NCBI RefSeq assembly: GCF_009674535.1
Contig: NZ_WKJK01000009.1
Location: forward strand, 28,099 to 60,098
Length of the DNA stretch: 32,000 bases
DNA from: Duganella guangzhouensis
GTDB taxonomy: Bacteria > Pseudomonadota > Gammaproteobacteria > Burkholderiales > Burkholderiaceae_D
Direction: 5' to 3'
The notes under the pieces are model-generated. The model was given only the letters and a program-made list of their open reading frames with translations. It had not been told where the DNA came from and did no database searches. Shown here in pieces: positions 4,363 through 28,180 of the stretch. Each line of letters opens with the position of its first letter. Within the stretch, counting starts at the first letter, position 1. Made by a program: the position numbers and the translations under genes.

Positions 4363-4369
4363 GCCGCAG

Positions 4370-5023
4370 TCAGGGCACGCACACCGCGCGCAGCACGGTT
4401 TCCACCACCGATGCGCGCCGTGCGGCGTGCACCTCGGCGGTCCCGAGGTCGCGGTCGAAGATGAAGCTGAAGGTATGGCGATTCGACACGTTATAGAACG
4501 ACAGCGCGCTGATCGACATGTGCAGGTCGACCGGATCGACATCGGCGCGGAACACGCCCTCGGCAATGCCGCGCTGGCACACCTGTTCCAGCAGCGTGAT
4601 CGCGGAGTGGTTAATCGCGCGCAGTTCCGGAATCTGGCGAATGTACTCGCCCTGGTTGATGTTCTCGCCCATCACCATGTGGATGAATTCGGGATGGGCC
4701 GCATGGAAGTCGAAACTTGCACTGACCAGCTGGCGCAAAGCCTGCACCGGCGCCAGACTGGCGTCGACCTCCAGCCCGCCCTCGATCTCGCGGAAGCGCA
4801 GATAGCTTTCCTTTAGCGCGGCCACGTACAAGTCTTTCTTGCTGCCGAAGTGGTAGTAGATCATTGCCTTGTTGAGTCCGCTCTCGGCCGCGATCGCGTC
4901 GATGCGGGCGCCGCTCAGCCCGAGTCGGGAAAATTCCCGCAGCGCGACATCCAGAATTCTTGCGCGGGTGCTGTCTTCCTCGGTCTTGGCAGGAGCGGTC
5001 TTCAATCTGCTTGCTTTAGTCAT
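4370..5023 (-). CDS. TetR/AcrR family transcriptional regulator
   Basis: The N-terminal HTH is RILDVALREFSRLGLSGARIDAIAAESGLNKAMIYYHFGSKKDLY. The ATG at 5023 is preferred over the TTG at 5026. The gene starts only 10-13 nt after the integrase stop (TAG at 5037-5039). Confidence 0.9.
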   Translation of the reverse strand: MTKASRLKTAPAKTEEDSTRARILDVALREFSRLGLSGARIDAIAAESGLNKAMIYYHFGSKKDLYVAALKESYLRFREIEGGLEVDASLAPVQALRQLVSASFDFHAAHPEFIHMVMGENINQGEYIRQIPELRAINHSAITLLEQVCQRGIAEGVFRADVDPVDLHMSISALSFYNVSNRHTFSFIFDRDLGTAEVHAARRASVVETVLRAVCVP

Positions 5024-5036
5024 CAAGCCATTCTAT

Positions 5037-6221
5037 CTAACTTTGAGAAGTAACGGTACGTGTGCCGTTCAGCGACGCCAGGATTTCGTCGTGTCGCTCG
5101 TTGTCGGTTTTATGCAGATACGCCGCAGTGGTGGCGATGCTGGCGTGGCCGGCGGTTTCCTGCAGCGTCTTCAGTTGCACGCCATTGTTGGCGTGGTTGG
5201 TCAGCATGCTGTGCCGCAGCCAGTGGGCCGAGGCCTGGCGCAGCGTGGCGGCCATATCCACGTCGCCCATGCCGGCCGCCGCGCTGGCTGCGGCCGCGAA
5301 AATCGCCTTGAGCGCGTCGGACGCCGCTTCATCGGTGATACGGACCAGCGCCGCTCCACGGCTCGACAGCACCAGCGGCGTGTGGTCGCTGCGCACGGCA
5401 TGCGGCAGCAAGTCGTAGGCGGCACGGTATTGGCGGAACGCGGCCAGCATGTCCGGCGGCACCGGCAAGCGGCGCGGTTTGTCGCCTTTGCCCATGACGT
5501 CCAGCCACCAGCGGCCGTTGCCTTCGGTGTAGAACGCGCCCATATTGGCGCTGACGATTTCGTTCAGGCGGGCGCCGGTGTGGATGTAGGTGATTAACAG
5601 GAAACGATCGCGCTCACGCCGGCGTACCGCCGCTGGCGTCAATGCCTCGCGCGCGGAAACCGTGGCGATCGCCAGTTGGAGCGCGTCCGAGGTCAGATAG
5701 CGCGTGATCCGGCTGGCGCCGATGGTTTTGACGTGCTTGACCAGCGCCGCCGGATCGCGCCGCAGATAGCCGGTTTGGGCGGCGTACGCAAACAATCCTT
5801 TGACCGCGATCATGGCCTGGCGCCGGCTGGCGTCCGACAACGGACCGCTGAACGGCCGATAACGCGGATCGTTGCGCGGCCATTTGGTGGTCGACACCCA
5901 GTCCGGCGGCGGCGCCTTGATGAATTCCTTGTAATGATTCAGGTCGGCCACATTCAGCTGGCGCAGCGTTTTGCCTGCCTCCTCCCGGCACCAGGTCAGG
6001 AAGCGGAACAGCTCTTTCTGGGTGTTGGCGACCGATTTCGGTCCCAGCTCGCCGTGGCTGATGAATTCGCGGGCAATTTCGCTATCGGTGCGGGCATCGG
6101 TGATGGCGTCTTCGGCGATGCTACGCAGGGCGTTGGGATCGCGAAAACGTCGTTCCGCAGCGCCGCCGCTTTGGGAGGGAAACGGGTCCAGGTTGATGAG
6201 GTCGAATTTCTTTTCCGGCAT
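5037..6221 (-). CDS. Tyrosine-type site-specific recombinase/integrase
   Basis: The C-terminal catalytic region has HTGARLNEI (Arg), HWLRHS (His-x-x-Arg) and GHASIATTAAYLH (His...Tyr nucleophile). An N-terminal SAM-like core-binding region is present (ELFRFLTWC...LNHYKEFI). The start is ATG 6221 or GTG 6233. Confidence 0.9.
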   Translation of the reverse strand: MPEKKFDLINLDPFPSQSGGAAERRFRDPNALRSIAEDAITDARTDSEIAREFISHGELGPKSVANTQKELFRFLTWCREEAGKTLRQLNVADLNHYKEFIKAPPPDWVSTTKWPRNDPRYRPFSGPLSDASRRQAMIAVKGLFAYAAQTGYLRRDPAALVKHVKTIGASRITRYLTSDALQLAIATVSAREALTPAAVRRRERDRFLLITYIHTGARLNEIVSANMGAFYTEGNGRWWLDVMGKGDKPRRLPVPPDMLAAFRQYRAAYDLLPHAVRSDHTPLVLSSRGAALVRITDEAASDALKAIFAAAASAAAGMGDVDMAATLRQASAHWLRHSMLTNHANNGVQLKTLQETAGHASIATTAAYLHKTDNERHDEILASLNGTRTVTSQS

Positions 6222-6234
6222 TGCAGGCTGCACA

Positions 6235-6299
6235 AAATACTGTATGAACGTCTAGTCGATTATACAGTATTTCATACAGTTATATTGATCGACAATATA
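6235..6299. promoter_or_regulatory. Inverted-repeat cluster plus a TATAAT box upstream of the integrase gene
   Basis: There is an 11-bp perfect inverted repeat: AAATACTGTAT (6235-6245) and ATACAGTATTT (6262-6272). A minus-strand TATAAT (plus-strand attata, 6259-6264) overlaps the right arm. A second inverted repeat is TATATTG-n5-CAATATA (6281-6299). The direct repeat GTCGATTA occurs at 6255-6262 and 6309-6316. Confidence 0.35.
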
Positions 6300-6338
6300 G
6301 GTAGTAATGTCGATTAGACTGGGCTACCAGAATTCATG

Positions 6339-7067
6339 TCAACTGGTCGCGTCGTCTCTTCGCAGGGGCGGTTCTTCGACCATGGCTGTTAGCATGGCTT
6401 TCAGGGTGCCGCAGGCTTGGTCAAAGGTCGGGTGAAAATTGAGGGCATCGACCGCCTCGAATTGCTTTTTCAACGGCGCATATCGCTCGTCGAGTTGCTG
6501 GAACACTGCGGCAGCATGGCGGACCATCCATTCGGCCGCCGCCATGAGTGCCTCGGTCTCCCGCTCGGCAATCAACGCAAAGTCGAAGATATCGCGCCCC
6601 GTGATGCGATCACCCCGATGCCACATTTTCTTGGCGATGATTTCCACCGAGGTTTCCACCCGGACCTCCTGCCCCATGATGGTTTTAATCTCGAAGCCTG
6701 GTGCGGTCAGGTTCGGCGCCGCCACGAAGTCAATTTCTCCCTCGGGGAGATAGAGCTTCACGTAGCTGGCCGCTTCGACGTAGTCGTTGGTGATCGACTC
6801 AGCGACCTTGCTCAGGCGAGGCGTGACGAAACCCAGGGACTGCGGATCGGGAACGAAAATGTCAATGTCCTTGCTGAAACGGTGGCCGTAGCGCAGCATC
6901 AGGACCGTGCCGCCGCCAAAAGTCCAGAACGGATCAGCACGGCCATGGCGGGCGATCTCGCCGATGACCGTCAGGGCATTGGCGAACAGCGTCTCCCATA
7001 TCGTAGGGATGCCCGGATCGCCCGCCATCACCAGACCGTTCTGCATACTTGCCACTGCTCGGCCCAC
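6339..7067 (-). CDS. Nucleotidyltransferase toxin, AbiEii/AbiGii (DUF1814) family
   Basis: The motif WTFGGGTVLMLRYGHRFSKDIDIFV matches the GGTAL...R.S.DIDF nucleotidyltransferase signature of AbiEii toxins. The gene lies immediately downstream of an HTH gene. An alternative in-frame ATG at 7028-7026 shares one base with the upstream TGA (7030-7028, TGATG), which suggests translational coupling. Confidence 0.72.
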   Translation of the reverse strand: MGRAVASMQNGLVMAGDPGIPTIWETLFANALTVIGEIARHGRADPFWTFGGGTVLMLRYGHRFSKDIDIFVPDPQSLGFVTPRLSKVAESITNDYVEAASYVKLYLPEGEIDFVAAPNLTAPGFEIKTIMGQEVRVETSVEIIAKKMWHRGDRITGRDIFDFALIAERETEALMAAAEWMVRHAAAVFQQLDERYAPLKKQFEAVDALNFHPTFDQACGTLKAMLTAMVEEPPLRRDDATS

Positions 7068-7504
7068 GAGCTTAGGTTTTTCATGATTTTTCTCGCAGGC
7101 ACGTCGGGCGTCGCCGCCTCGGTCACAGCCTTGACGACGACCGGCAGCGGGGTTTCATCCAGCAACGTCATCAGGTGTGGCTGGAATTGTTCAGGCGCCT
7201 GGCCAGAACGCAGCATCAGCGAAAGCATCTCGGGCGTCACGACATCCCGGTAACTGGTGCTGATGCTGCGCGCAGCGATCACTAGCGCACTTTTCAATCC
7301 AGAGGGCTGTACTGTTTCCATGTCGATACCCAAAATGTCCATCACGGCCTTGAGCTTGGTGTAGCCCAAGTCCTTCAGCGCCCCATTCTCCAGTTGATTA
7401 ATCGTGACGCGGGACAGACCCGCAAACTTGGCCAGATGCTCCTGCAGCAGGCCGGCCTGGACACGCTTGATATGAATTTCACCGCCAATTTGTGCAAGAT
7501 TCAT
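7028..7504 (-). CDS. XRE-family HTH protein, putative antitoxin/regulator of the AbiEii-like toxin
   Basis: The N-terminus is IKRVQAGLLQEHLAKFAGLSRVTINQLENGALKDLGYTKLKAVMDILG, a Cro/C1-type HTH. It is followed by a ~90-aa C-terminal domain with no motif I can name. The gene overlaps or abuts the toxin ORF. Confidence 0.85.
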   Translation of the reverse strand: MNLAQIGGEIHIKRVQAGLLQEHLAKFAGLSRVTINQLENGALKDLGYTKLKAVMDILGIDMETVQPSGLKSALVIAARSISTSYRDVVTPEMLSLMLRSGQAPEQFQPHLMTLLDETPLPVVVKAVTEAATPDVPARKIMKNLSSWAEQWQVCRTVW

Positions 7505-7576
7505 GTTAAAACCAAGGTTAAAACTAAGTAATGTTAAGTATATTTAACATTATAGCTGTAGTCGCGGCAATTCCAA
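7505..7576 (-). promoter_or_regulatory. Putative sigma70 promoter with overlapping palindromic operator for the XRE/AbiEii operon
   Basis: On the minus strand the promoter reads TTGGAA (7571-7576), a 16-nt spacer, then TATAAT (7549-7554). A perfect 9-bp inverted repeat, TAATGTTAA (7529-7537) - n6 - TTAACATTA (7544-7552), overlaps the -10 box. Two more direct GTTAAAAC copies sit at 7505-7512 and 7517-7524, next to the start codon. Confidence 0.5.
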
Positions 7577-7627
7577 GCCCTTGTTTCATCTTAGGTCGCG
7601 CGTCCGATATATATCGCGTTATTGTCA

Positions 7628-8614
7628 TCAAGCGAGACTTGCCAGTTCATATAGTTCTCGCGCAAATTCAGGCAGTAGCACCAATGACTCATGTTCTATC
7701 CAGCGTTGGCTGGTAACCAGTTCATGCAATATCGGCCCAGACAGTAACGACGCCGGCAGGTCCTGCACTGGCCACGGCTGCGGTAGCGGCAACGCATGAG
7801 TAGATAGCAACGTGCCGGCCGCGCGGGGAATCCATGGCGCAGGTCGCCTCCCGTCGGCAGCACAGCGCAAAGATAAGCCTATGCGTAAGCCATTGGGGTC
7901 GAGATCGGCGAAGTGCAACCACGGAATATTGTCGGGTAAGCGGGCGATGAACTTCGTTGCCAACCCTGCATTCCAGCCCGGCGCCTGCAGCATCAGTACG
8001 GAGGGCACAAGAGGAAAGTCCACAAAAGCGCCCAGGTTTTCCACCGTGAGGATCAATCGCGGCATAACGCCGGCCAGCTGCCACTCCCCTGTCAACGCCC
8101 GCTCCGGTATCGATACCTCGCCCAGTAACGCCAAGCAGGCGTCCAACTCCATTCTGCTCCCTGCCCCCACCATCTCCAAGCCCGCGTTTGGTCGCAGGCG
8201 CAATACCTCATCGGTCGTCAACAGTACGCCTTCAGGAGGCGCGCGCTGGCCCGACTTGGAATGCGCGCCGGCCCACGCCGCCCACGTTTTGCGATTCAGC
8301 CGGCTGATGCCCGCCGGCAGTATTAGCGATGATCGCCGCTGCGCCCGCAACGCGGCCGTCGAAATGCTCTGCGGGTTGGCGGAAAACGCCGCTTCCACTT
8401 CCGGCAGTTGCGGCCACCGCTGCAGCAGATAGCAGCGCAGCACGTCCACCTTCTCGGCGTGTAGCTGATATTCTCCACTGCGGCGAGTTGGCCCGATCAG
8501 TCCAAGCTGCTCAAGTTGCAGCAGCCACGATGCGGCCGCCTTCGTGCTTGTCAACCGACGTGTGAGCAATAGCCGCAAGGCCCCTGCCCGCACAGAATCA
8601 TCATCCCAGTTCAT
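7628..8614 (-). CDS. mksG: JetD/MksG-like Toprim-domain protein (putative nuclease subunit of the Wadjet/MksBEFG system)
   Basis: The ATG at 8614-8612 overlaps the mksB-like stop (8613-8611) as ATGA, giving 328 aa; the longer track ORF is an upstream extension. The C-terminal motifs are ILTVENLGAFVDF (Toprim Glu), GWNAG, WLHFADLDPNGLRIGL (DxD) and RWIEHESL. From memory these parallel the DUF2220/JetD C-terminal domain pattern VENxxxF ... WGDxDxxGxxI ... LEQE. Confidence 0.72.
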   Translation of the reverse strand: MNWDDDSVRAGALRLLLTRRLTSTKAAASWLLQLEQLGLIGPTRRSGEYQLHAEKVDVLRCYLLQRWPQLPEVEAAFSANPQSISTAALRAQRRSSLILPAGISRLNRKTWAAWAGAHSKSGQRAPPEGVLLTTDEVLRLRPNAGLEMVGAGSRMELDACLALLGEVSIPERALTGEWQLAGVMPRLILTVENLGAFVDFPLVPSVLMLQAPGWNAGLATKFIARLPDNIPWLHFADLDPNGLRIGLSLRCAADGRRPAPWIPRAAGTLLSTHALPLPQPWPVQDLPASLLSGPILHELVTSQRWIEHESLVLLPEFARELYELASLA

Positions 8615-11600
8615 GCGCTCATGCGAGTGCCGCGGATGGTGACATATTCCTCCCTCCCCCGCAGACTGCGCTGGAGCTGAAACACCGTGGATCGCCGCGG
8701 CTTGTCCAAGCCGGGGGCCGCTACCAGCGCCTGCACGTCCATGCGTTGGCAAAACTCCGTCAGGGTATCGAGTGCGGATTGATCAAGCCGGTTTGCCTCA
8801 TCCAGCAGAATTTGTTGCATGGCATAGCCGGCAGCGCCGGACAGGCGATTCGCTTCATCATTCCACGTGCGCAAGATCATAATGAGCACTGCCGCGCCCA
8901 CTCCGATCGCCTCACCTGTCGACAGGCCGTCGGTCGCTTCCCATTTACCGTTCAGACGTTGGACTTCAAGATGCAGGCGCAGATAGTTGCGATAATCGAG
9001 TAATTTCGTACCCTTGATGGTTCCGCCCGTTTCGCGGTGATACATTTGCGCCAGCGTTTCTTCCAGCGGTAAGCCAGAATCAAACAACGACAGCTGGTTA
9101 TGCTGTCGCAGACAGTTCAGCATCGTCTCCATGTCCTCCGGCTGACTGGACTTGATCGTCAGGCCCTGTATCGATCCGAAGCGGACCTGCTCCAGCTCAT
9201 GACTAAGGCGGTTGACCAGCGCTCTTGCTGAGCGCAGACGCACGCTAATGCCATCCGCCAAGCCGGACGAGCGGTTCCGCATGTCTTGTTCCTGCACCAG
9301 CAAAGTACGTCGCAACTCGCCCAATTTTTCGGTCATTTGCGCCAGTGCCAGTTGAGGATCGTCGGCGGTGGCAATGGTACGCGGAATCCGCTGCTCGATA
9401 TGCAGCCGCACTCGCTGCCAAGCGTGCAATGTCTGGATCGCCCTGCGCTTGCCGGCATCCTCGGCAAATCCTTCAATACGCTTCACCTTTTCCAGCACGT
9501 CGGGATATGACCTCAGACGCTCCAGCAAGATCCCCTGCTGCTCCTGAGACGCGTGAAAAGCGTTAATAGGGCTTCCGGGCGGCAAATGCTTTTGCCGATT
9601 GGCCGTAGTGTCAATTTTTCCATGCAGGCCCAACTCGTCCACCACGCGCTGCAACTCGCGCTTCGCCTGGCGCTCGCCCCGCAACACCGACAACTGCTGG
9701 GTGGCCGCCTTGTCCTGCGCCGCCATCACGTCAGTCAAGCTGCCAAGTAAAGTGACCGCCTCAATGTGCTGCTTGTTGGCAGCTTCGCGCGCCGGCGTCA
9801 GCTGCGCCAGCAGGGCACGAAGGCGTTCCAGGTGGCGCCGAGACAAGCACACTTCGTCGGTGCTGCCGGTGGCGCCGGTGGCGGCCAGTTCTTGCTGAAG
9901 GGATAGGCACTGCGCCTCTTTCGCTTGTAGGTTGCCCTGTTGCAGCGCGTTACTGGTTGCTGCTGAGCGCGTGAGTTCCCGCGCTTCCTTCAGTTGGCCC
10001 CGGCTGATATCCAGTAGTGTCTTCGCTGGCGTAAGCTTTTTTTTCAGGGCGTCGATCACACTCCCCTGTTCATGGTACTGCCGCTCGTCGTCGTCACGGT
10101 CCAGATGATCGATCACGCTCAGCAACCGCTGCAGCGCATCGCGTTGCCGCGCAAGATGTGCGCGGCTGGAGGTCAGCCGTGCCATTTGCTGTTCCAGCGC
10201 TTGCAGCTGGCCGGCCACAGGCACCGCCGCCAAAATCGGCAATTCTGCCAAGATCTGCGTCACCGCATCGCCGTGCTGTCGCAGCCATGCGCGCGCCTCC
10301 TGGCCCGCTTTCAGCTCACGTTCCAATTGCAACACCGTTTGCGCAAACAACGGTGGATCCAGCAAACTGCGCCGCGACTCCAGCTCGACCAGTCGTCCAC
10401 GGCGGTGATCGGCGCGGACGGCCTGCTCGCGCAAGCTGTCCGCCCGCGCCTGCAAGGTTGCAATGGTCTGGGTGAGCGTCCTCACTTCTACCTGCAAGGC
10501 GTGATAAGCTGGTTCGGGGTTCGGCTCCCAGGCAGCGCTGCCGAGCGCCAGCCAGTCCGATGCGAGACCGAGACTCCGCTGCAGCGTACGCGCCTGCTCA
10601 TGCAGGCCTGCCAGCGCCGCTTCGAGCATGGTGACATCGTTCTTCAGCCGGGTCATCTCCAGCTGGCGCGCGCGGCGCCCCAGCACCGGTCGCTCGGGCC
10701 GGCGCGTGAGCCGTGCCAGGAGTTGTGGCAACTTGCCTTGCGTGACCAGCTCGCTATCATCAAGACTGATGGCATCGAGCGATTGCCGGGCCAGTTGTTC
10801 AGACATGAAAAGCAGGGTATCCGGGCGATCGCCGAGCTCTGCCGCCAGACGGGCCGCATGCGCCGGCTGGTCAACCACGATGGCATCTGCGAACAGGCCC
10901 AGCCGTGCTTCAGTGGTGGCCGCCTCCCCTGCGGCCAGATCATCAAAACGTTGGGCCAGCAACGAGCCTTCGACATGGGCCGCGACCGTGGCGATACGCG
11001 GGTCCAGCGTGCCGGTGCTACTTTCCAGCTGACCTATTCGATGACGCAGCAGATATAAATCCTTTTCGGCCACGCCGCGGTGTTCCTGCACCACGAATTG
11101 CTCCTGCCGCTTGAGATCAGCCATGCGCTGGACTTCGGCTGCCGATGTCAGCGGGGACCACGCCGTGTCAAGTGCCGCCAGCTCGGCACGGAAGTTACTC
11201 GCCAACTGGTAGCAGCGCAGCGCTTCCTGCAGCGTCGGCAACTTGCCTTTCACTTCCAGCAAGCGCTCCTGACGCGTTGCCAGCTCAATGCCCAATGCAT
11301 TTTGCTCCGTCTGGTTTTTAGCCAGTTCCGCATGAACCATGGCCTGCGCGTCGCTCAACTCGGCACCGCTATGAATACCCAATTTTTCCGCCTGCTGACG
11401 AACCGCCCGCTGTTCGCCAGCAGTATTGCGGGCGTATGCGAGATCGTGCTCCAGCCTGTCAATAGCATCGGCAGCGACAAGTTGTTCGCGCCGCCGTACC
11501 TCCAGCGCCATCGCGTAGGCATGCGCGCCCTGCATGGACGGTGGCGTTTTCGATTGCGCCCGCGCCAACTTGCTGATTTTGGCGTACAAATTTTCAAATC

Positions 11601-13014
11601 GCTCCCGTTGCTGGTCAAACGCATCGAAGCGCGCCTGCGCATCGGTCTGGCGCAATGTCGCCACCTCGTACTGCACATCGACCACGTTCTTGATGGCTGC
11701 TGCGGTGTGCTGGTCTACACGCAGTGGCACCATCACCGCCTGGGCTGCGGCCCAGTGCTCCCGTGCGATACGCAACTCCGTCACGCGCCGTATCAATCCT
11801 TCATAGGCTTGCTGAGTGTTGCCCAATTCTTCGGCCAAGCGCGTGTGCTCATCCTCCGCGCGCTGCTGCACCAGCATGGCCTGCCTTTCCGCAAGCTCAT
11901 ATTGTTCACATTGAAGGCGGGCAGCTGCGGCAGACTGCGTCAGCTCGGCGCGCTCCTCGTCAGCGGTTTGCAGTTGGGTGCGCAGCTTGTGTGCCTGCTC
12001 CTTGCTCTGCAAGTCAATGGACGCGGCCTGCGCCTGCTGCTCAGTAGTGCTGAGTTGCAGGCTTAGCGAGTCCACCAGCTCCTGTAATCCCGCGGCCTTT
12101 TCGGTATCACAGGCATGACGCCTGCGCACCTGCTTGGCCAAGCAGGCTTGCTGACGCCAGTTGCCGAGCTCCTGCTCGTATCGGCCCAGTGCGCCGAACA
12201 GCGCAAACGATGTCATCTTCCAAGCGGCATCAAACAAGCCACTGATTTCGGCATGGGCTTTTTCAGCTTCGTCCAGCTGACCACGGGTAATACGGCATTG
12301 TTCAAGCGCGTCGCGCATCAATACGGTACGGCGCTCAAGCGTGGCATCTTCCAGCAGCAGATAATCGCGCAGGCCGGTCTGGATCAGGCTGGCCAACGCG
12401 GAGCCTTGCATCGAGGTCGACAACACCCGGTAAAACCGTTCCTGCTCCTCGTGTGTGGTCATAGGCAAGGGGGTAATGCCGAGATCGAACAGCGATTTCA
12501 TGTACTCGGCCAAGGTCTTGCATATGGTCAGCTTTCCGCCACGAAAGTTGATTTGATCTCGCAACGCGTTCAGTTGCGGGATCACGCTGCGTTCTCCATC
12601 ACGCACCAGCAGGATCTCGTACGGACTGGCTTCGGTCGGCACGTCTTCAATAATGAAACTCTTCACATCGATGGCCGGCATAGCTCCCCGCAGCAGGGCC
12701 ACGCCGGCCCATATACTCTTGCCACGCGGAGTGATCCACTCGATCACGGCATAACTGATGCCCTGCTCACCGAGCCGCCCCCACAAACCGCCATCACCGC
12801 GCGTGGCACTCACGGCACCGTTGATGTTCTTGAACTCCAGCAGGCGCAGGTTGGGCAAAATCGCGGTGACAAATGCCGCCATGACCGTAGTCTTCCCCGA
12901 GCCATTCTGGCCCTCCAGACCAGTCACGTGGCGGTCCAGGTCAAAACAGTGAAATACGATCCCCTTCCAGTTGGCAATTACCAGCCGTCTTGCATATGTG
13001 CGATACAGTTTCAT
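8611..13014 (-). CDS. mksB: MukB-like SMC ATPase (MksB/JetC subunit), 1467 aa
   Basis: The N-terminal head is LVIANWKGIVFHCFDLDRHVTGLEGQNGSGKTTVMAAFVTAILPNLRLLEF, with the Walker A at 12886-12912. From memory this is close to the E. coli MukB N-terminus. Long Q/A/E/L/R-rich coiled coils follow. A non-coil hinge-like block lies at about 10650-11020 (TLDPRIATVAAHVEGSLLAQRFDDL...DAIVVDQP...RRPERPVLGRRARQLE). The C-terminal head is LSTGEAIGVGAAVLIMILRTWNDEANRL...QILLDEANRLDQSALDTL (signature-like motif plus Walker B). An SD (GGAGG) precedes the ATG. Confidence 0.92.
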   Translation of the reverse strand: MKLYRTYARRLVIANWKGIVFHCFDLDRHVTGLEGQNGSGKTTVMAAFVTAILPNLRLLEFKNINGAVSATRGDGGLWGRLGEQGISYAVIEWITPRGKSIWAGVALLRGAMPAIDVKSFIIEDVPTEASPYEILLVRDGERSVIPQLNALRDQINFRGGKLTICKTLAEYMKSLFDLGITPLPMTTHEEQERFYRVLSTSMQGSALASLIQTGLRDYLLLEDATLERRTVLMRDALEQCRITRGQLDEAEKAHAEISGLFDAAWKMTSFALFGALGRYEQELGNWRQQACLAKQVRRRHACDTEKAAGLQELVDSLSLQLSTTEQQAQAASIDLQSKEQAHKLRTQLQTADEERAELTQSAAAARLQCEQYELAERQAMLVQQRAEDEHTRLAEELGNTQQAYEGLIRRVTELRIAREHWAAAQAVMVPLRVDQHTAAAIKNVVDVQYEVATLRQTDAQARFDAFDQQRERFENLYAKISKLARAQSKTPPSMQGAHAYAMALEVRRREQLVAADAIDRLEHDLAYARNTAGEQRAVRQQAEKLGIHSGAELSDAQAMVHAELAKNQTEQNALGIELATRQERLLEVKGKLPTLQEALRCYQLASNFRAELAALDTAWSPLTSAAEVQRMADLKRQEQFVVQEHRGVAEKDLYLLRHRIGQLESSTGTLDPRIATVAAHVEGSLLAQRFDDLAAGEAATTEARLGLFADAIVVDQPAHAARLAAELGDRPDTLLFMSEQLARQSLDAISLDDSELVTQGKLPQLLARLTRRPERPVLGRRARQLEMTRLKNDVTMLEAALAGLHEQARTLQRSLGLASDWLALGSAAWEPNPEPAYHALQVEVRTLTQTIATLQARADSLREQAVRADHRRGRLVELESRRSLLDPPLFAQTVLQLERELKAGQEARAWLRQHGDAVTQILAELPILAAVPVAGQLQALEQQMARLTSSRAHLARQRDALQRLLSVIDHLDRDDDERQYHEQGSVIDALKKKLTPAKTLLDISRGQLKEARELTRSAATSNALQQGNLQAKEAQCLSLQQELAATGATGSTDEVCLSRRHLERLRALLAQLTPAREAANKQHIEAVTLLGSLTDVMAAQDKAATQQLSVLRGERQAKRELQRVVDELGLHGKIDTTANRQKHLPPGSPINAFHASQEQQGILLERLRSYPDVLEKVKRIEGFAEDAGKRRAIQTLHAWQRVRLHIEQRIPRTIATADDPQLALAQMTEKLGELRRTLLVQEQDMRNRSSGLADGISVRLRSARALVNRLSHELEQVRFGSIQGLTIKSSQPEDMETMLNCLRQHNQLSLFDSGLPLEETLAQMYHRETGGTIKGTKLLDYRNYLRLHLEVQRLNGKWEATDGLSTGEAIGVGAAVLIMILRTWNDEANRLSGAAGYAMQQILLDEANRLDQSALDTLTEFCQRMDVQALVAAPGLDKPRRSTVFQLQRSLRGREEYVTIRGTRMSA

Positions 13015-13026
13015 CTCAACCTCCGG

Positions 13027-13686
13027 TCAAGTGTCAGGGTCGGCTTCGTCATCGTCTTCTTTAATCTGTCCTTCGGCAATCAGGCGGCCCAGCGCCAGTT
13101 CCAGCTCCTCGGCGCCGCGCACCGGATCGGCAAAGCGCATCACAGCCGACAGCGGCACCACCACACCCAGTTCGCCACGGCCTTCGCGTCGCACGAACCC
13201 CAGCCGCTCCAGCGTCCGTAGCGCCATGGCAAATGCTTCGCGCAATTTACGCGCATCCTGGCCCAGGTCCTTGCCGCGCCTTCTGCCGGCCAGCCGTATC
13301 AGTCCTTGCTCGCCAAGTAATTGCTCCATCAGCCCGAAGATAGCGAGATCCGGTATCCGGTGATTGGTTTCCAACCATTTGTGATCCAGTCGCATCAGGG
13401 CCAGGGTCTGGCCGGTCAGCATTTCCATGACAGACAACTTGCGCAGTCCCAGCGGTGGCGGCACCGCCAGCCGGTCGGGCAGCAGATAGAAGTAGCCCTC
13501 GCTCCCCTGCAGCAGGGCGACGCTGAAGTAACTGTAAAAGCGTTCCATCAGCTTGCTCGTACTGCTGAGAAAATCAAACAGCGCGGTATCATAATCGGGG
13601 CCGATATGTCGGCCGCGGCGCAAGGCAAGGTCGGCGCGCGCGAACATCGGGTCCTCGATCACCTCTTCCAGGGTGTGATAGATCAT
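13027..13686 (-). CDS. mksE: MukE-like KITE subunit (MksE/JetB)
   Basis: The ATG at 13686-13684 overlaps the upstream stop as ATGA, giving 219 aa. The EGYFYLLPDR motif resembles MukE EGFFYLRPR, and the acidic tail is EDDDEADPDT. The gene sits between the kleisin-like and SMC-like genes, in the mukF-mukE-mukB order. Confidence 0.8.
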   Translation of the reverse strand: MIYHTLEEVIEDPMFARADLALRRGRHIGPDYDTALFDFLSSTSKLMERFYSYFSVALLQGSEGYFYLLPDRLAVPPPLGLRKLSVMEMLTGQTLALMRLDHKWLETNHRIPDLAIFGLMEQLLGEQGLIRLAGRRRGKDLGQDARKLREAFAMALRTLERLGFVRREGRGELGVVVPLSAVMRFADPVRGAEELELALGRLIAEGQIKEDDDEADPDT

Positions 13687-15053
13687 TCCGGCTCCTTCAC
13701 GTTGAACGGTGGTGCGCGCTGCAGCTGCGGCAACCCGGCCGGCAGCCGCAGTTTGAGCGTTTGCGCTTCCAGCCGCAGCGACAGCGCAATCCATGGCTGG
13801 GGCAACATCGTCTCATGCGTGCTACCGTTTTTCAGCAGCTCGGGCGTGACGTGAGATAGCAGAGTGAAGCGCTCTTCGTCGGTAAAGTCGACGGCGATGT
13901 CCCGAACCGCCGCCACAATGTCGATATCGCCTTCGCCGAGTAGCCGTTGGACCAGTGCCGCCACCGCCTGTTCGACACGGTCGGGCTCAGCTTCGACGCG
14001 CTCCTGCAATCCTTGAGCAAGCAAGATGTCGTTTGGCACCGCGAGCGAAACGGTGGCCTCGGGCTTCAGCACCTCGCGCATGTGACGGAACGGTTCCGGC
14101 GCCACCAGTACCAGACCGAATGGGCGATCCTGGAACTGGCGTATTTGCTCGACCAGCCGGCCGCGCAATCGGTTATCGGGGTCAGTCTGAACAAAGTAAC
14201 GGATATAGATCTGGACGTTGGCGTAATATTGGGCCCAGTCTTCGTGCCGGCGCGCGCCCCAGGCGGCCAGCCGCAACAACTGGTTCTGCGCGCGCTCCAC
14301 CACTGGCGACAGTTCAGCGTGGCTGACCGCGAGCTCAGACAAACTCAACAATTGCCGCTGCAGCGACTCCACGTGTTCGCACAACACCGCGTTCAGCTCG
14401 CTCAGCGTCCGGTCGACGCTGCTCACCATCTCCTTGCAGCTGTCTGCAGCAACCAACCACTCACTGTCGAACAATTCGGTAATTCGCTGGCGCAGCCGCT
14501 TATGGGCGGCGTCCAGTCCCAGTTGCCGCTTCTCGACCGCAGCCATCATTTCCAGCATCACGTCGCGCATCGGGAAGATGACTTTCATTTCCCAGTGTTC
14601 ATGCGTTCCGCCCTCTGCTGCTGCCGCAAGCACCTGGGCCAGTTCGGTACGCATGCGCATCAACATGAATTCCAGACTGCGCCGGGTCAGCGTGCGTTCG
14701 TTCTGCATGCCTTCCGCCAGCGCCATTCCCAGCGGCGACAATGCGTACTCGCCTTCGTAAGACCATCCGCCGGAGTCGATGCGCAATAGTACGCCTTGCG
14801 CATGGAGACGGGCGATGATGAACGTGGCGCGCTGCGTTTCGGTGTCTGTTCCGGCGTTGGCCAATTCAAACACTACGGCATACACTCGGCGCAACGACTG
14901 CTCATCCAGGCTAAGGATAGTGGTATGTTGCAGGTACGCATGTATCCCTGCGATAAACGCGGTCTCTTCCCGGCCCAAATGCAGCGCACAGCCGCTGAGC
15001 CAGACTTCGGTAATCACACCGGCGACCGAAGGCCGCTCCTCATGCTGTTCCAT
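13683..15053 (-). CDS. mksF: MukF-like kleisin subunit (MksF/JetA)
   Basis: 456 aa from ATG 15053, with an SD (GGGGA) 5 nt upstream; GTG 15065 is also possible. Several blocks parallel my recollection of E. coli MukF: YALSPLGMALAEG, AAAEGGTHEHWEMKVIFPM and SEWLVAADSCKEMVSSVDRTLSELNAVL. It is the first gene of the operon. Confidence 0.75.
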   Translation of the reverse strand: MEQHEERPSVAGVITEVWLSGCALHLGREETAFIAGIHAYLQHTTILSLDEQSLRRVYAVVFELANAGTDTETQRATFIIARLHAQGVLLRIDSGGWSYEGEYALSPLGMALAEGMQNERTLTRRSLEFMLMRMRTELAQVLAAAAEGGTHEHWEMKVIFPMRDVMLEMMAAVEKRQLGLDAAHKRLRQRITELFDSEWLVAADSCKEMVSSVDRTLSELNAVLCEHVESLQRQLLSLSELAVSHAELSPVVERAQNQLLRLAAWGARRHEDWAQYYANVQIYIRYFVQTDPDNRLRGRLVEQIRQFQDRPFGLVLVAPEPFRHMREVLKPEATVSLAVPNDILLAQGLQERVEAEPDRVEQAVAALVQRLLGEGDIDIVAAVRDIAVDFTDEERFTLLSHVTPELLKNGSTHETMLPQPWIALSLRLEAQTLKLRLPAGLPQLQRAPPFNVKEPE

Positions 15054-15159
15054 GCATATCCCCACGCTATGTCAAAACGCTTGCACACTTTGCAATAAGC
15101 TAAAGTCTCCGCTCACGTCTGTCGCACGGTTTGATACAACGCAAGCGGACTCTCGATGC

Positions 15160-15185
15160 CAGGCTCGAAAGAGCCTGTTTGTCAC
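15160..15185 (+). terminator. Orphan terminator-like hairpin (CAGGCTC-GAAA-GAGCCTG followed by TTTGTCAC)
   Basis: The stem is 7 bp (15160-15166 / 15171-15177) with a GAAA tetraloop and a short T tract on the plus strand. No plus-strand gene ends upstream of it. Confidence 0.3.
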
Positions 15186-15264
15186 CCGGGAATTACGACC
15201 ACAAGGAATGGTCAATATAGCATGGCCTGACGTCAAATTTCTCGTATTAAGCCCTTGATTTCGC

Positions 15265-15270
15265 TATAAT
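15265..15270 (+). promoter_or_regulatory. Perfect TATAAT -10 box upstream of the U32 gene (no convincing -35)
   Basis: The sequence tcgcTATAATtccc lies 30 nt upstream of the ATG at 15300, and an SD (AAGGA) follows. The -35 region (tcgtat / cgtatt) is a poor match. Confidence 0.35.
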
Positions 15271-15299
15271 TCCCGCCTTCACACGTAAGGAATCAAGCC

Positions 15300-17270
15300 A
15301 TGACTCTGCTAGCCCACCAGCTTGAACTGCTGTCGCCCGCCAAAACCGCCGAGATCGGCCGTGAAGCGATCCTGCACGGCGCCGACGCCGTCTATATCGG
15401 CGGCCCGGCGTTCGGCGCGCGTCACAACGCCAGCAATTCAATCGAGGAAATCTCCCGCCTGGTGGAGTTCGCGCATCGCTACCGTTCGCGCATTTTCGTT
15501 ACCCTCAACACGATTCTGCATGACGCCGAACTGGACGCCGCCCGCAAGCAGATCTGGCAGCTGTACGAGGCCGGCGTCGATGCCCTGATCGTGCAGGACA
15601 TGGGCTTGCTGGAAATGGACCTGCCCCCTATCCAGCTGCACGCCAGCACCCAGTGCGACATCCGCACCGTGGACAAGGCCAAATTCCTCGGCAACGTCGG
15701 TTTCTCGCAGCTGGTGCTGGCGCGCGAGCTGACCATCGAGCAGATCAAAAAAATCCATAGCGAAGTCGATACGCCGCTGGAATACTTCATCCACGGCGCG
15801 CTGTGCGTGGCCTATTCCGGCCAATGCTACATCTCGCACGCCGACACCGGCCGCAGCGCCAATCGCGGCGACTGCTCCCAAGCCTGCCGCCTGCCCTACA
15901 CGCTGAGCGACAGCAAGGGCGGCGTGGTCGCCTATGAAAAGCACCTGCTGTCGATGAAGGACAATGACCAGAGCGCCAACCTGGAAGCGCTGGTCGACGC
16001 CGGCATCCGCTCGTTCAAGATCGAAGGCCGCTACAAGGACATGGGCTATGTGAAGAACATCACCGCCCATTACCGTCTGCTGCTGGACGAGATTCTGGAG
16101 CGCCGTACCGAGTTCACGCGCGCCGCCAGCGGCAGCACCGAGATTTTCTTCACGCCGGATGTCGACAAGACCTTCCACCGCGGCCACACCGATTACTTCG
16201 CCAACGGCCGCCTGGATGATATCGGCGCCTTCGACAGCCCTAAATATGTGGGCGTGGAATTGGGCACCGTCAGCCGCGTCGGCACCGACCATTTCGACGT
16301 GGTGACCAATGCCGCCATGGCCAATGGCGACGGCCTGAACTACATGCACAAGCGTGAAGTCCACGGCATCCAGGCCAATGTGGTCAAGAAGCTGGATGAA
16401 AACGACGAAGGCCAGGTCTGGCGCGTGTTCCCGAACGAGACCATCAGCACCCTGCCCGGCCTGAAAGTCGGCTTGTCCGTCAACCGCAACCGCGATCACC
16501 ACTGGGAAGCCTCGCTGAACAAGAAATCGGCAGACCGCAAGGTCGGCGTGCATCTGACCTTGAGCGAACAGAACGGTGGCCTGCGCCTGTCGCTGTGCGA
16601 CGAAGATGGTTATCTGAGCGACACCAGCGCCACCATCGCGCTGCAGCCGGCGCAGAACGCCGAGCAAGCCGACGCTTCGCTGCGCGGCAGCCTGGCCAAG
16701 CTGGGCAACACCATGTTCGTGGCCGACAGCGTGGAACTGAAGCTGTCGCAGCCGTGGTTTGTGCCATCGGCCGCCATTAACGCGCTGCGCCGCGAGGCAA
16801 TCGAGGCACATGAGGCGGTGCGTCTGGCGGCCTGGGACCGTCCACAGCGCAAGGCGCCGGCCGAGCCGCCAGCCACCTATCCGGAGACGCAGCTGAGCTA
16901 TCTGGCCAACGTCTACAACGAAAAGGCGCGTGCCTTCTATCATAAGCACGGCGTGCAGCTGATCGCCGCCGCTTACGAGGCGCACGAGGAAGCCGGCGAA
17001 GTGCCGCTGATGATCACCAAGCACTGCCTGCGCTTTTCGTTCAATCTTTGCCCGAAGCAGGCCAAAGGCGTGCAAGGTGTGCAGGGCCAGGTGCGGGCCG
17101 AGCCGATGACCCTGGTCAGCGGCGACGAAACCTACACCCTGCGCTTTGACTGCAAACCATGCGAGATGCACGTGGTGGGCGCCATGAAGCCCGGCATTCT
17201 GAAGTCGGCGCCACCGTCGAATATTCCTTACAGCCCCCTCGTTTTCCATCGCCAGCGCCCACGCGCTTGA
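15300..17270 (+). CDS. rlhA: U32-family peptidase-like Fe-S protein, long form (YdcP/RlhA-like, putative rRNA hydroxylation factor)
   Basis: 656 aa. The N-terminus is LELLSPAKTAEIGREAILHGADAVYIGGPAFGARHNA. The four-Cys motif C169-x6-C176-x15-C192-x3-C196 (15804-15887) is GALCVAYSGQCYISHADTGRSANRGDCSQAC, typical of the U32 family Fe-S site. The length and C-terminal extension match the ~650-aa YdcP/RlhA class rather than the UbiU/UbiV/TrhP class. Confidence 0.8.
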   Translation: MTLLAHQLELLSPAKTAEIGREAILHGADAVYIGGPAFGARHNASNSIEEISRLVEFAHRYRSRIFVTLNTILHDAELDAARKQIWQLYEAGVDALIVQDMGLLEMDLPPIQLHASTQCDIRTVDKAKFLGNVGFSQLVLARELTIEQIKKIHSEVDTPLEYFIHGALCVAYSGQCYISHADTGRSANRGDCSQACRLPYTLSDSKGGVVAYEKHLLSMKDNDQSANLEALVDAGIRSFKIEGRYKDMGYVKNITAHYRLLLDEILERRTEFTRAASGSTEIFFTPDVDKTFHRGHTDYFANGRLDDIGAFDSPKYVGVELGTVSRVGTDHFDVVTNAAMANGDGLNYMHKREVHGIQANVVKKLDENDEGQVWRVFPNETISTLPGLKVGLSVNRNRDHHWEASLNKKSADRKVGVHLTLSEQNGGLRLSLCDEDGYLSDTSATIALQPAQNAEQADASLRGSLAKLGNTMFVADSVELKLSQPWFVPSAAINALRREAIEAHEAVRLAAWDRPQRKAPAEPPATYPETQLSYLANVYNEKARAFYHKHGVQLIAAAYEAHEEAGEVPLMITKHCLRFSFNLCPKQAKGVQGVQGQVRAEPMTLVSGDETYTLRFDCKPCEMHVVGAMKPGILKSAPPSNIPYSPLVFHRQRPRA

Positions 17271-17381: not shown

Positions 17382-17543
17382 CACCGAAGTTGCCGCACGG
17401 AAATAATTTAGCAGCGCCCGGATTCCTGTTGATTCGTGCGCTGTTAAAACTTTTTCTATAGCAAAATGCGCGTCGCTCGCGGATTGACCGCTAGGCAACT
17501 TCCACTCTTCCAGCCACTACCAGCCACAAGCCAAGGGGATAGC

Positions 17544-20500
17544 ATGAGAAAACTTCCATATCGACAGCGATCACTGGAAACCTTTCAACGTTTCACCACA
17601 ACAGGACTTCCACTCGCCATCAGCCTGACACTAGCCGCCTGTGGCGGTGGCAGTGACGGCACCCAGGACACCGCCAGCGCCGGCCCGGCGCGCATGATGA
17701 GCGCGCTCGCGGCCAGTCCGGAGGCGGTGCTGACACCGGTCGCGGCCACCGCCAGCGGTGCCGAACGCGGCGATTTGTCGGCCGCCGCCGCCATCGACCA
17801 TGATCTGACCACCCGCTGGAGCAGCCTGTTCAGCGACACCCAGTGGCTGACGCTGGACTATGGCAGCAGCAAGGTCATCAACCACGTCCACATCGATTGG
17901 GAAAACGCCCACGCCACGCAGTATCAGTTGCAGGTGTCGGACGATAACCTGAACTGGACCACCATCAAGACGGTGGACAACAGCCAGGGCGGCAGCGAGG
18001 ATTGGACCGGCTTGAACGGCCAGGGCCGCTACCTGCGCATGCAGGGCGTCAAGCGTTCGACCAACTACGGTTATTCGATCTTTGAAATCCAGGCCTATTC
18101 CGGCGGCAGCGTGTCGACCGATCCGGTAACCACCGAGCCGGTGACGGTCGACCCGACCAAGCCTGGCGTGGCGATCAAACCGGTGACGGCGACCTCGTCG
18201 GCGCTGGAAAACCCGGGCAATTCGGCCACCAATGCCATCGACGGCAGCACCACCACGCGCTGGGCCAGCGCGTTTGAGGACGGCGCCTGGATTCAGTTCG
18301 ACTTCGGCGCCAAGACCCAGGTCGGCTATATGAAGCTGCTGTGGGAGAACGCTTACGCCAAGCAGTACAACCTGCTGGTCTCAGACGATGGTCAGGCGTG
18401 GACGCAGATCCGCTCTGTCAGCAATGGCCTGGGCGGCACCGAGGAGTTCTTCAACCTGGGCGTCAACGCGCGCTATATTCGGTTGCAGGGCGTGGCGCGC
18501 GCCACGCAGTATGGCTACTCGCTGTTTGAGGTGTCGTTCAAGACGCCGGGTAGCGACAACTCGCTGTCCTCGTCAACCACGTCGGCGTTCAAGTTCCCGG
18601 CCAGCGGCGCCGGCTGGGCGCCCTTGCCTGCCGCCGCCGAGCCGCTGGAATCGCTGCAGTTCACGCTGGCCGACGGCACCCTGGTCACCCGCTTCGGCGC
18701 ACGCGGCCTGGCGCGTCACGGCCGCGAACGTGGCGAGGAATGGAATGAAATCGGCTATGGCCTGAACGAAACGGTGGACCCGGTCACCGGGCTGCCGGTC
18801 GATAAAGGTCCGGGCAATTATCTGACCTTTGTGCCGCAGTACTTCAAGAACCGCACCTGGGGCATGGAGATCATCGACAACAGCCGCGTGGCTGGCGTGA
18901 CCAAGCCGCAACTGATCGTCAACCAGTACTCCACGGTCGATTTCCTGCAAGGTGGCGTGGCCTTCTTCCGCGCCATCGACCGGCCGGGCGTGACCGGCTA
19001 CGGCTGGATGGCGCCGGGCCAACTGGTGGACGACAGCGTCAAGGTCTGCAAGCCGATCGCCTACCCGGCCAATAACAAGCTGGCCACCACCAACGGCATC
19101 AACGGCGCCTGCACCTTGCTGGTCAAGGAGTATCCGGGCATGACGGCGCTGGATACCAATGGCTTCCCGATCGAGGGCAAGAACATCGCCGCGCGTCCGT
19201 TGGTACAGGGCGATGTGATCGAAGTGTCGCCATCGATGTTCTCGACCACCGAGTCGATGCTGGCCAAGGGCGACAACGGCGGCATCCGCTACTACTCGTA
19301 TGAGTGGGTGTATGTGGTGGGTCAGGGTCTGAAGCCATGGTATGGCGTGCAGCCGCGTCTGAATTCGGTGCCGCTGCCGGCGGAAACGCTGTCCGGCGGC
19401 CTGGGTTCGGTGTCGTACAACTATTCGGACAACGCGCTGTTCATGTTCCAACAGCCGCAGACCAATGTCGGCATGCAGAATATGCAGCGCTTCGTCGAGG
19501 GGCGGCGCCTGTTCCATACCAACTTCACCACCGGCGACCATAACGAGCCGGGGAATGATCGTTATGATGCGGCGGTCGGCCTGCAAGGACAGCTGTTCAA
19601 TCAGTCGTCGTGCTTTGCCTGCCACGTGAATAACGGCCGCAGTGTAGCGCCGACCACGCTGAATCAGCGTCTGGACAGCATGTCGGTGCGGGTGGCGTCC
19701 ACCAGTGCGGCCGGTGTGCAGTCGCCACATCCGCTGTATGGCACCACGGTGCAGATGAATGCCCTGTCCTCTTCCGGAACGCCGCAGAACTGGGGCACCG
19801 GCGTGCGCGTCGGCAGTTTCGAAAGCACGATCAAGACGCTGGCCGATGGCAGCACGGTGGAACTGCGCAAGCCAGTGCTGGCGTTTGAAGGTCCGGTGCC
19901 GGATACGGTATCGCTGCGCGCCGCCCAGCCTATCATCGGCGCCGGGCTGCTGGAAGCGGTAGCGGAAGCTGACATCCTGGCGCGTGCCACCGGCGCGGCG
20001 GACGTGGATGGCGTCAAAGGTGTGGCGAACTATGTCTACGATCCGGAGAGTGGCGCGGTGCGTCTGGGCCGCTTCGGCTGGAAGGCATCCAAGGCGACCT
20101 TGCGCCAGCAGGCCGCGTCCGCGCTGCTGCAGGATATGTCGGTGGTCTCGCCGGTGTACCGCAACCGCTCGTGCAATACCGATCCCGCCGGTTGCCAGGC
20201 CGCCGCCGCGCAAAAAGGCATCACCGAAGATGACCTGCAAGCGCTGTCGCGCTATCTGGCGCTGGTGGCCGTGCCGGCACAACGCAGCCTGGCCAGCGGC
20301 TTCCCGAAAGGCGTGGCGCCGATCGACGAGATGAATGTGGATCCGGTCAAGGTGGCGGCGGGCGCCAAGGTGTTCACCACCATGCGCTGCTCGGCGTGCC
20401 ACACGGTGGAGATGAAGACTGGCAGCGGCCATCTGTTTGCAGAACTGCGTAACCAGACCATTCGTCCGTATTCGGATCTGCTGCTGCACGACATGGGCAC

Positions 20501-20756: not shown

Positions 20757-20761
20757 CGACA

Positions 20762-20787
20762 AAGCCGGGCACCTGCCCGGCTTTTTT
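20762..20787. terminator. Bidirectional rho-independent terminator between convergent genes
   Basis: The sequence is AAGCCGGGC-acct-GCCCGGCTT, a 9-bp stem followed by TTTTTT on the plus strand. The complement reads AAAAAAGCCGGGC-aggt-GCCCGGCTTTGTCGTT on the minus strand. It sits exactly between the stop at 20754-20756 and the stop at 20787-20789. Confidence 0.8.
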
Positions 20788-22742: not shown

Positions 22743-22755
22743 GGTCTCCCCTTTT

Positions 22756-25242: not shown

Positions 25243-25426
25243 TGATATCGTCTCCGTAGTTTTATAGTTATCGCGCATTAGCACGCGTGAAATTATTCTG
25301 AGACTGGTTTCACGCCGCCGCAATTACGAAAACCGCCAAACGCGGGAACGAAATTTGGCAGAGACCAAGGTTCACAATGCGTGGATGATCTACAATCTGC
25401 TTGCCAATACATCAACAAGAGGAACC

Positions 25427-27875: not shown

Positions 27876-28180
27876 AACACCTGCTTGAGCGGCCATTCGC
27901 GGGGCCGGTTACCCGGCTCCACTTCCATCAGGTCCGCCATGTAGTCCCACCAGCGCTTCATCACCGCTTGCTGCGGCAGGTCGGCTATGCTGTTCTCGGG
28001 CCGCAGCTTCAGCACCGCGAACAACGACAGCGTTTCCTCGTCGAGGAAGATGGAGTAGTCGTAGATGCCGGCGGCACCCAGCGCGGCGCCGAGGTCCGGC
28101 CATAGTTCATCATGGCGGCGCTTGTATTCTTCCACAGTGCCGGGCTTCAATTGCATACGGAATGCGCGTGTCGTCGTCAT
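27863..28180 (-). CDS. rhaM: L-rhamnose mutarotase
   Basis: 105 aa from ATG 28180, which is 1 nt after the rhaI stop (TGAtATG). The sequence is RAFRMQLKPGTVEEYKRRHDELWPDL...GIYDYSIFLDEETLSLFAVLKL...WWDYMADLME, the typical RhaM/YiiL pattern. It lies in a rhamnose operon. Confidence 0.85.
   Translation of the reverse strand: MTTTRAFRMQLKPGTVEEYKRRHDELWPDLGAALGAAGIYDYSIFLDEETLSLFAVLKLRPENSIADLPQQAVMKRWWDYMADLMEVEPGNRPREWPLKQVFYFA

Follow-up and report, generated by a model that had tools for sequence, protein, structure and literature searches.

A MukBEF-proximal Wadjet-group operon with a predicted Toprim nuclease gene in Duganella guangzhouensis

MukBEF, the essential chromosome organiser of Escherichia coli, is a structural maintenance of chromosomes (SMC) complex whose origin is called unclear in reviews, where descent from a Wadjet-like ancestor is proposed; the proposal in the SMC field is that an anti-plasmid system of this kind was domesticated through loss of its nuclease. 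Here we analyse a four-gene operon, F-E-B-G (FEBG), on the minus strand at positions 7628 to 15053 of a window of 32,000 nt from Duganella guangzhouensis (the whole stretch of DNA analysed, positions 28,099 to 60,098 of contig NZ_WKJK01000009.1). The operon is a member of a MukBEF-proximal lineage of the Wadjet group (MksBEFG class) that lies outside Wadjet types I-III. Because it is among the closest nuclease-bearing relatives of MukBEF, it makes the domestication idea testable. It is a concrete system in which to ask whether a motor of MukB architecture restricts plasmids, what size rule MukB-length arms would impose, whether the interactions with AcpP, Topo IV and MatP were later additions, and whether removal of G turns the complex into a condensin.

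The canonical MukBEF operons (mukFEB of E. coli and Photorhabdus thracensis) have the same F-E-B gene order and the same Pfam families as the Duganella operon, and an SMC subunit of similar size (1467 aa for B and 1486 aa for MukB). In contrast, they have no fourth gene, where the Duganella operon carries one for a predicted Toprim nuclease, G (PMC7617805; E. coli locus). The cmoM-mukFEB-ldtD synteny of E. coli is absent from the Duganella locus and, unlike MukBEF, operons of the Duganella type are patchily distributed across non-enteric phyla. The same four kinds of subunit make up the type I Wadjet systems (JetABCD of E. coli GF4-3 and of Pseudomonas aeruginosa PA14) and the MksBEFG of Corynebacterium glutamicum, and G has the predicted fold and the E/DxD motif in common with MksG (8b7f) and JetD (7til). 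These systems extrude DNA and then cleave it, and the same mechanism would be expected of the Duganella operon. However, F, E and B miss the JetA, JetB and JetC structures and the JetA and JetC models of PADLOC, B is longer and G is shorter. Type II Wadjet (JET-II of Neobacillus vireti), which cleaves plasmids, has been described as MukBEF-like in dimer geometry and hinge; it has a single tandem-KITE JetB (KITE, kleisin-interacting tandem winged-helix element) and arms of intermediate length, whereas the E protein of Duganella is a standard MukE-like KITE of 219 aa. Finally, P. aeruginosa possesses, besides Smc-ScpAB, the Wadjet-group SMC complex MksBEF, whose resemblance to MukB is much weaker and which lacks G (thought to have been lost), whereas the Duganella operon keeps it.

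Muk-type subunits and the predicted nuclease

The four genes of the operon are translationally coupled. Gene F (13683..15053, minus strand; a MukF-like kleisin of 456 aa counted from the ATG at 15053, with a GTG at 15065 as first possible start) is followed on the same strand by gene E (13027..13686; a MukE-like KITE subunit of 219 aa with an acidic C-terminal tail), the stop codon of the one and the start codon of the other overlapping in ATGA at 13683-13686. After the stop codon of E come a 12-nt spacer (13015..13026, minus strand, CCGGAGGTTGAG), which contains a Shine-Dalgarno-like GGAGG, and then the ATG of gene B (8611..13014, minus strand; a MukB-like SMC ATPase of 1467 aa). The stop codon of B in turn overlaps the start codon of gene G (7628..8614, minus strand; a predicted MksG/JetD-type Toprim nuclease of 328 aa) in a second ATGA, at 8611-8614. 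Overlaps and spacer were read directly. A preliminary description of this DNA had given the same four co-directional genes, overlaps and spacer, which proved correct on re-reading, and every peptide motif that it quoted is present in the translations.

Searches with F, E and B returned Muk profiles with E-values far beyond chance. In Pfam, F matched MukF_M (4.3e-18) and KicB (5.2e-7), E matched MukE (3.9e-22) and MksE (1.7e-19), and B matched the MukB N-terminal family (5.3e-54), MukB_hinge (8.3e-23) and SbcC_Walker_B (4.9e-7); no Pfam families beyond MukF, MukE, MksE, MukB and generic P-loop/ATPase domains were found for the three proteins. The NCBIfam models for MukB, MukF and MukE aligned nearly end to end with B, F and E, but each score stayed under the equivalog cutoff of its model. 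B reached 640 bits with an end-to-end alignment (8.2e-192; cutoff 699), F 180 bits (7e-53; cutoff 407) and E 84 bits (9.9e-24; cutoff 250). Among PDB sequences, F found MukF chains only (best 2.5e-23) and B found MukB chains only (1.2e-85 across residues 7-1464). With E, all matches at 1e-15 or below were MukE chains (best 1.4e-18), and besides MukE there was one marginal match to a designed repeat. No match from F, E or B to the solved JetA, JetB and JetC chains was obtained in the search of all PDB sequences.

B consists of an N-terminal head (aa 5-224), a MukB-type hinge (aa 656-802, nt about 10609-11049) and a C-terminal head (about aa 1230-1464), and its ATPase motifs are intact, with Walker A K41, the signature LSTGE at 1364-1368 (S1365) and Walker B D1405/E1406. 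Across 1436 aligned columns its identity with E. coli MukB is 23%, being highest in the heads (34-37%), lower in the hinge (25%) and lowest in the arms (14-19%). The parallels that had been drawn by eye between the first two genes and MukF and MukE, and between the third gene and a MukB-like, MukB-sized SMC, are borne out by the Pfam and NCBIfam matches, and the hinge block placed at 10650-11020 agrees with the MukB_hinge match. Because the matches are to Muk proteins only, the NCBIfam scores lie under their cutoffs and the scores with PADLOC models are poor (see below), F, E and B are by sequence much nearer to MukFEB than to the subunits of catalogued Wadjet systems, yet are not MukFEB equivalogs. 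The N-terminus of E was also searched for a clade-specific motif for the docking of G; nothing diagnostic emerged, since the N-terminal motif '..LEEvI.D..F...DL.LRrGRHIG' is common to the clade and E. coli MukE.

The G protein scored 20.5 bits with Pfam JetD_C, whose cutoff is 22, and matched C. glutamicum MksG by sequence at E = 0.28. It contains the motifs VENLGAF (191-197), ADLDPNG (236-242) and IEHES (306-310), and ten of its residues (E192, D237, D239, H234, E307, E309, R139, R141, E166 and R172) are invariant across 23 G homologues. An AlphaFold2 model built from the alignment of these homologues reached a predicted local distance difference test score (pLDDT) of 91.4 and a predicted template modelling score (pTM) of 0.75. 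When the model was compared with the PDB using Foldseek, the top match was C. glutamicum MksG (8b7f, 1.4e-7), together with topoisomerase VI-A (Topo VI-A; 7.5e-6; 9o0g, 1d3y, 2zbk), P. aeruginosa JetD (7til, 4.4e-5) and Spo11, and nothing else in the PDB was significant. E192 and D237/D239 match the E...DxD pattern of the Mg-binding triads of JetD (E248/D290/D292) and Topo VI-A (E197/D249/D251) (Liu et al. 2022), the comparison being one of motif pattern and not of superposed structures. These results indicate that G is, as modelled, a short MksG/JetD-type nuclease with a CAP-like and Toprim fold and intact catalytic residues. The fourth gene had been read as a JetD-type Toprim gene from its motifs; the motifs are present, E192, D237 and D239 are invariant, and the CAP-like and Toprim fold is modelled with high confidence.

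Placement beside MukBEF and outside Wadjet types I-III

Wadjet types were scored with the individual JetA-JetD hidden Markov models (HMMs) of the PADLOC library. None of the operon proteins matched the JetA models. The JetC models gave B 14 bits (JetC1), from the P-loop only, JetB2 matched E at E = 0.0024 across 40 residues, and JetD1 matched G at E = 1.9e-5. The four Jet HMMs thus do not all recognise the proteins, as they would in the catalogued types I-III, and by these scores the operon does not sit squarely in a catalogued type. The features of the broad Wadjet/MksBEFG group are all found, namely SMC ATPase motifs and hinge, upstream kleisin and KITE genes, and a predicted Topo VI-A-like nuclease with E...DxD. 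Canonical MukBEF is not matched by the equivalog scores, by the nuclease-free three-gene layout or by a position within the MukB clade. These comparisons place the operon in a MukBEF-proximal Wadjet-group (MksBEFG-class) lineage outside types I-III.

Profiles and modelled fold therefore agree with the preliminary description, which had recognised a MksBEFG/Wadjet-class four-gene SMC-kleisin-KITE-Toprim operon with a MukB-like, MukB-sized SMC. Its figure of roughly 1100 aa for JetC proteins fits the 1118 positions of the PADLOC JetC1 model, which B exceeds by ~350 aa. Its suggestion of an under-described Wadjet subtype stands in so far as the operon lies outside PADLOC types I-III, but novelty is limited by published data: operons of Massilia sp. 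PAMC28688, Sorangium, Plasticicumulans and others are already listed as 'FEBG' (Bürmann et al., Cell 2025, Data S1; PMC7617805). The main text of that paper does not discuss them (PMC7617805), and full-text literature searches found no paper naming or characterising a MukBEF-type system with a nuclease. The FEBG lineage is, then, not undiscovered; it is listed in a published supplementary table, and no paper describing it was found.

To place B among its relatives, neighbour-joining trees of 44 B proteins (100 bootstraps) were computed from the full alignment and from the head-plus-hinge columns, and rooted on divergent Enterobacterales/Pseudoalteromonas FEBG proteins. Canonical MukB was monophyletic with a support of 100, the G-bearing clade that includes Duganella B was monophyletic with 100 (full alignment) or 94 (head plus hinge), and the two groups were joined with a support of 100. 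The widely sampled maximum-likelihood tree of Bürmann et al. has the same topology (Data S1, PMC7617805). There, a clade of Sorangium So ce56 and So0157-2, Massilia sp. PAMC28688, Sulfurifustis, Thiococcus and Plasticicumulans, 6/6 FEBG over these six leaves (two further leaves, AWV89344 and GAA19673, being left out), has as its sister, with an ultrafast bootstrap (UFBoot) of 100, the group of E. coli K-12 MukB and Endozoicomonas, which are both FEB (PMC7617805). Every deeper outgroup leaf that was checked against the table of operons is FEBG (Azonexus, a Nitrosomonadales metagenome-assembled genome, Salmonella Paratyphi B SPB7, Vibrio parahaemolyticus, V. natriegens, Shewanella and Calditerrivibrio; PMC7617805). 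Since both the sister clade and these outgroups carry G, parsimony favours a loss of G on the stem of MukBEF, and the Duganella clade would then be its nearest surviving nuclease-bearing relative. The notion of an intermediate between MukBEF and Wadjet, which had been raised from the DNA alone, is supported by this placement, the clade being sister to canonical MukBEF and the deeper outgroups that were checked carrying the nuclease.

Six residues of MukB that we take to be partner contacts, D745 and E753 for ParC and K1114, W1117, C1118 and K1125 for AcpP, are invariant in 6 canonical MukB proteins; in contrast, they are not conserved in Duganella B or its clade. This tentatively hints that the ParC and AcpP partnerships may have arisen after the loss of G.

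The long FEBG operons of a second clade (Salmonella Paratyphi B SPB7, V. parahaemolyticus, V. natriegens and Shewanella, with Rosenbergiella, Phytobacter, Tatumella, Klebsiella indica, Scandinavium and Pseudoalteromonas among the sampled loci) share the F-E-B-G order, a MukB-sized B (1515-1527 aa) and an equally short G (about 325-335 aa). This clade branches outside MukBEF plus the Duganella clade, however, and its B proteins are ~30% identical in local matches.

It is conceivable, if rather unlikely, that the Duganella clade preserves the ancestral state of MukBEF, that is, a motor that both folds the chromosome and restricts plasmids via G. If this were true, deletion of G, perhaps with a few further changes, would yield a MukBEF-like condensin, and experiments could then retrace how an immune system was domesticated into a machine for chromosome segregation. 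A complex with two functions today, in which FEB would organise or segregate the host chromosome and G would cleave plasmid or foreign DNA, would amount to a living domestication intermediate. This would suit the closest nuclease-bearing relative of MukBEF, with its MukB-length arms, its MukB-type hinge and an SMC that aligns with MukB from end to end. It would also suit the fact that the operon occupies a shared chromosomal site in two species of Duganella, and there is speculation in published reviews that chromosomal DNA, too, is extruded into loops by Wadjet. Nevertheless, we hold it to be unlikely: the cassette is patchy within the Oxalobacteraceae, so that close relatives manage without it, and the putative contact residues for ParC and AcpP are not conserved in B, which is a hint only.

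Distribution of the cassette and its probable function

The G and B proteins are 100% identical to GJ699_17790 and GJ699_17795 of Duganella sp. FT80W. A scan of one genome per species found at least 119 genomes that encode a relative of G, and locus comparisons rest on 80 loci retrieved out of these 119. By tblastn and calling of open reading frames (ORFs), the order F-E-B-G with a B gene of about 4.4 kb was present in nearly all 80 loci, and B measured 1465-1487 aa across the cassette relatives. Hosts include Oxalobacteraceae, Cupriavidus, Paraburkholderia, Chromatiaceae, Pseudomonas, Sorangium and other Myxococcota, Planctomycetota and more, and a profile search of 1.84 billion representative proteins returned 164 clusters with E <= 1e-30, a number that rose to 258 with E <= 1e-10. 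That the cassette is conserved speaks for G acting together with FEB. A decayed operon, or a G gene that is a chance neighbour, was rejected, as no ORF or motif is disrupted and the same order of the four genes is met in several phyla.

Around the cassette, by contrast with its interior, little is constant. Within the Oxalobacteraceae only three species-representative genomes have it, for comparison with about 25 Duganella and about 60 Massilia species named at NCBI, and the flanks of 18 loci held 104 Pfam families in 140 ORFs, none of them in more than two loci. Presence in the Oxalobacteraceae is patchy, which speaks against a core role, and the flanks vary; the pattern is that of an accessory cassette of the chromosome that moves horizontally. 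A Gabija GajB-type UvrD helicase (E down to 7e-237) and an AAA_21 ATPase adjoin the cassette in 2/18 loci, PD-T4-6 matches lie in the flanks of 2/18 loci, and ISL3 transposase and integrase genes are occasional neighbours.

This distribution bears on whether the operon could be a pure housekeeping condensin, a MukBEF orthologue that replaces or backs Smc-ScpAB and in which G serves a chromosomal task such as the resolution of entanglements. B is named 'Chromosome partition protein MukB' in UniRef and comes near the MukB equivalog cutoff (640 vs 699 bits). However, F, E and B all score under their equivalog cutoffs, the cmoM-mukFEB-ldtD synteny of E. coli is lacking, and the cassette is sporadic with variable neighbourhoods. 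Moreover, long FEBG operons occur in Salmonella and Vibrio, and the Enterobacterales/Salmonella and Vibrio hosts of the second FEBG clade presumably have canonical MukBEF too. The housekeeping explanation is therefore very improbable, the more so as canonical MukBEF has no G (PMC7617805).

In our opinion the operon probably encodes a dimeric loop-extruding motor, FEB, and a Toprim effector, G, which together would restrict small circular DNA by extrusion and then cleavage. F (kleisin), E (KITE) and B (ATPase) would assemble into the motor as in MukBEF and JetABC, and G would be a dimeric nuclease effector with the MksG/JetD/Topo VI-A fold. By analogy with JetABCD of types I and II and with the MksBEFG of C. 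glutamicum, the motor, once loaded on DNA, would begin to extrude it, and G would be licensed to cut only after complete extrusion of a small circle. Plasmids would thus be destroyed but not the chromosome. From the characterised relatives we infer complex formation, loop extrusion, the circular-DNA rule and plasmid restriction, and the MukB-type hinge, the long arms and the shortened G could alter this behaviour.

Several points weigh against plasmid restriction by extrusion and cleavage. For this lineage the argument for plasmid restriction is one of analogy, and MukB-length arms may change the size rule. G is ~40-70 aa shorter than the characterised JetD and MksG proteins, with marginal sequence similarity, so its docking on the complex may differ. 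The PADLOC Wadjet models barely recognise the operon, and because of this the FEBG lineage is probably under-counted in defence-system surveys. A defence-island context is found in some loci and not in most, flanking defence genes being only occasional. The cassette is nearly absent from plasmids, with 2 weak plasmid or chromid records, and phages gave no match to it. Finally, its presence at the same chromosomal site, beside the peptidase U32 gene, in two Duganella species is compatible with a stably inherited chromosomal function.

Some of the same features would fit a defence system with a trigger or target other than that of Wadjet I/II, for instance phage DNA, linear DNA or larger replicons. 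Some of the N-terminal region that type I JetD has is missing from G (328 aa vs about 360-375 aa in solved chains), the ~350 aa by which B exceeds the JetC1 model concern arm length, and Gabija and PD-T4-6 genes adjoin some loci. Against this, no phage link was found, systems that restrict plasmids are built from the same parts, a Toprim effector and an SMC/kleisin/KITE core, and Wadjet types I and II share the extrusion-cleavage rule although they are divergent. We give such a different trigger a slim chance, and prefer restriction of small circular DNA.

Two metagenomic proteins, P0230 (975 aa) and P0241 (1052 aa), carry the G-type domain as their C-terminal ~300 residues. In P0230 it is preceded by a MukB-like N-terminal head and a hinge-like segment, and a C-terminal head is absent; this protein could be a natural fusion/deletion derivative or an artefact of assembly or gene calling.

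Local context of the operon in Duganella

The host had been judged from the DNA to be a high-GC non-enteric proteobacterium, and Duganella is indeed a betaproteobacterium, the GC content of the window being about 0.55-0.65. To the right of F lies a divergent peptidase U32 gene. The intergenic region between the two (15054..15299) is the presumed promoter region of the operon; a sigma-70 consensus scan found no site in it, and the promoter/terminator scan found no terminator after G.

To the left of G, all on the minus strand, are a tyrosine integrase gene (5037-6233), a gene for an AbiEii-family nucleotidyltransferase toxin (6339-7067) and, upstream of the latter with a 40-nt overlap, an HTH_3/XRE (helix-turn-helix, HTH) gene (7028-7504). 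Between G and the HTH gene there is a sigma-70-like site on the minus strand (7576-7549; TTGGAA-16-TATAAT, 10/12). The AbiEii/HTH pair resembles an abortive-infection or type IV toxin-antitoxin module whose partner is of XRE type and not a classical AbiEi.

In Duganella alba FT9W the locus is colinear, at 80% nt identity, from G through the peptidase U32 gene and beyond, and a homologue of the integrase gene (17582-18823 of its retrieved locus) is 85% identical at the nt level. The interval between integrase and G differs, however: 1.3 kb with the AbiE genes in the window vs 6.6 kb of metabolic genes (LacI, ABC-transporter, asparaginase, CutC and ROK genes) in D. alba, and the outer flank of the integrase differs as well. 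The integrase-G region is a variable hotspot. The adjacency of the operon to an integrase and a toxin-antitoxin module, to which the preliminary description had drawn attention, is thus real but not conserved. A search for att sites and direct repeats in positions 3800-16000 of the window gave short chance-level repeats only, and no tRNA gene was found in the window or in the retrieved loci L001, L003 and L013. FEBG as demonstrable cargo of the integrase was dropped as a candidate, given the 6.6 kb of metabolic genes between integrase and G in D. alba.

The right part of the window (17466-25323) encodes carbohydrate-active and redox proteins, apparently unrelated to the operon. Among them are a protein of 1096 aa that has F5/8 type C and di-haem oxidoreductase domains, a GH5 cellulase carrying a PEP-CTERM motif and a BNR/CBM2 protein, and further to the right there are rhamnose-pathway-like genes.

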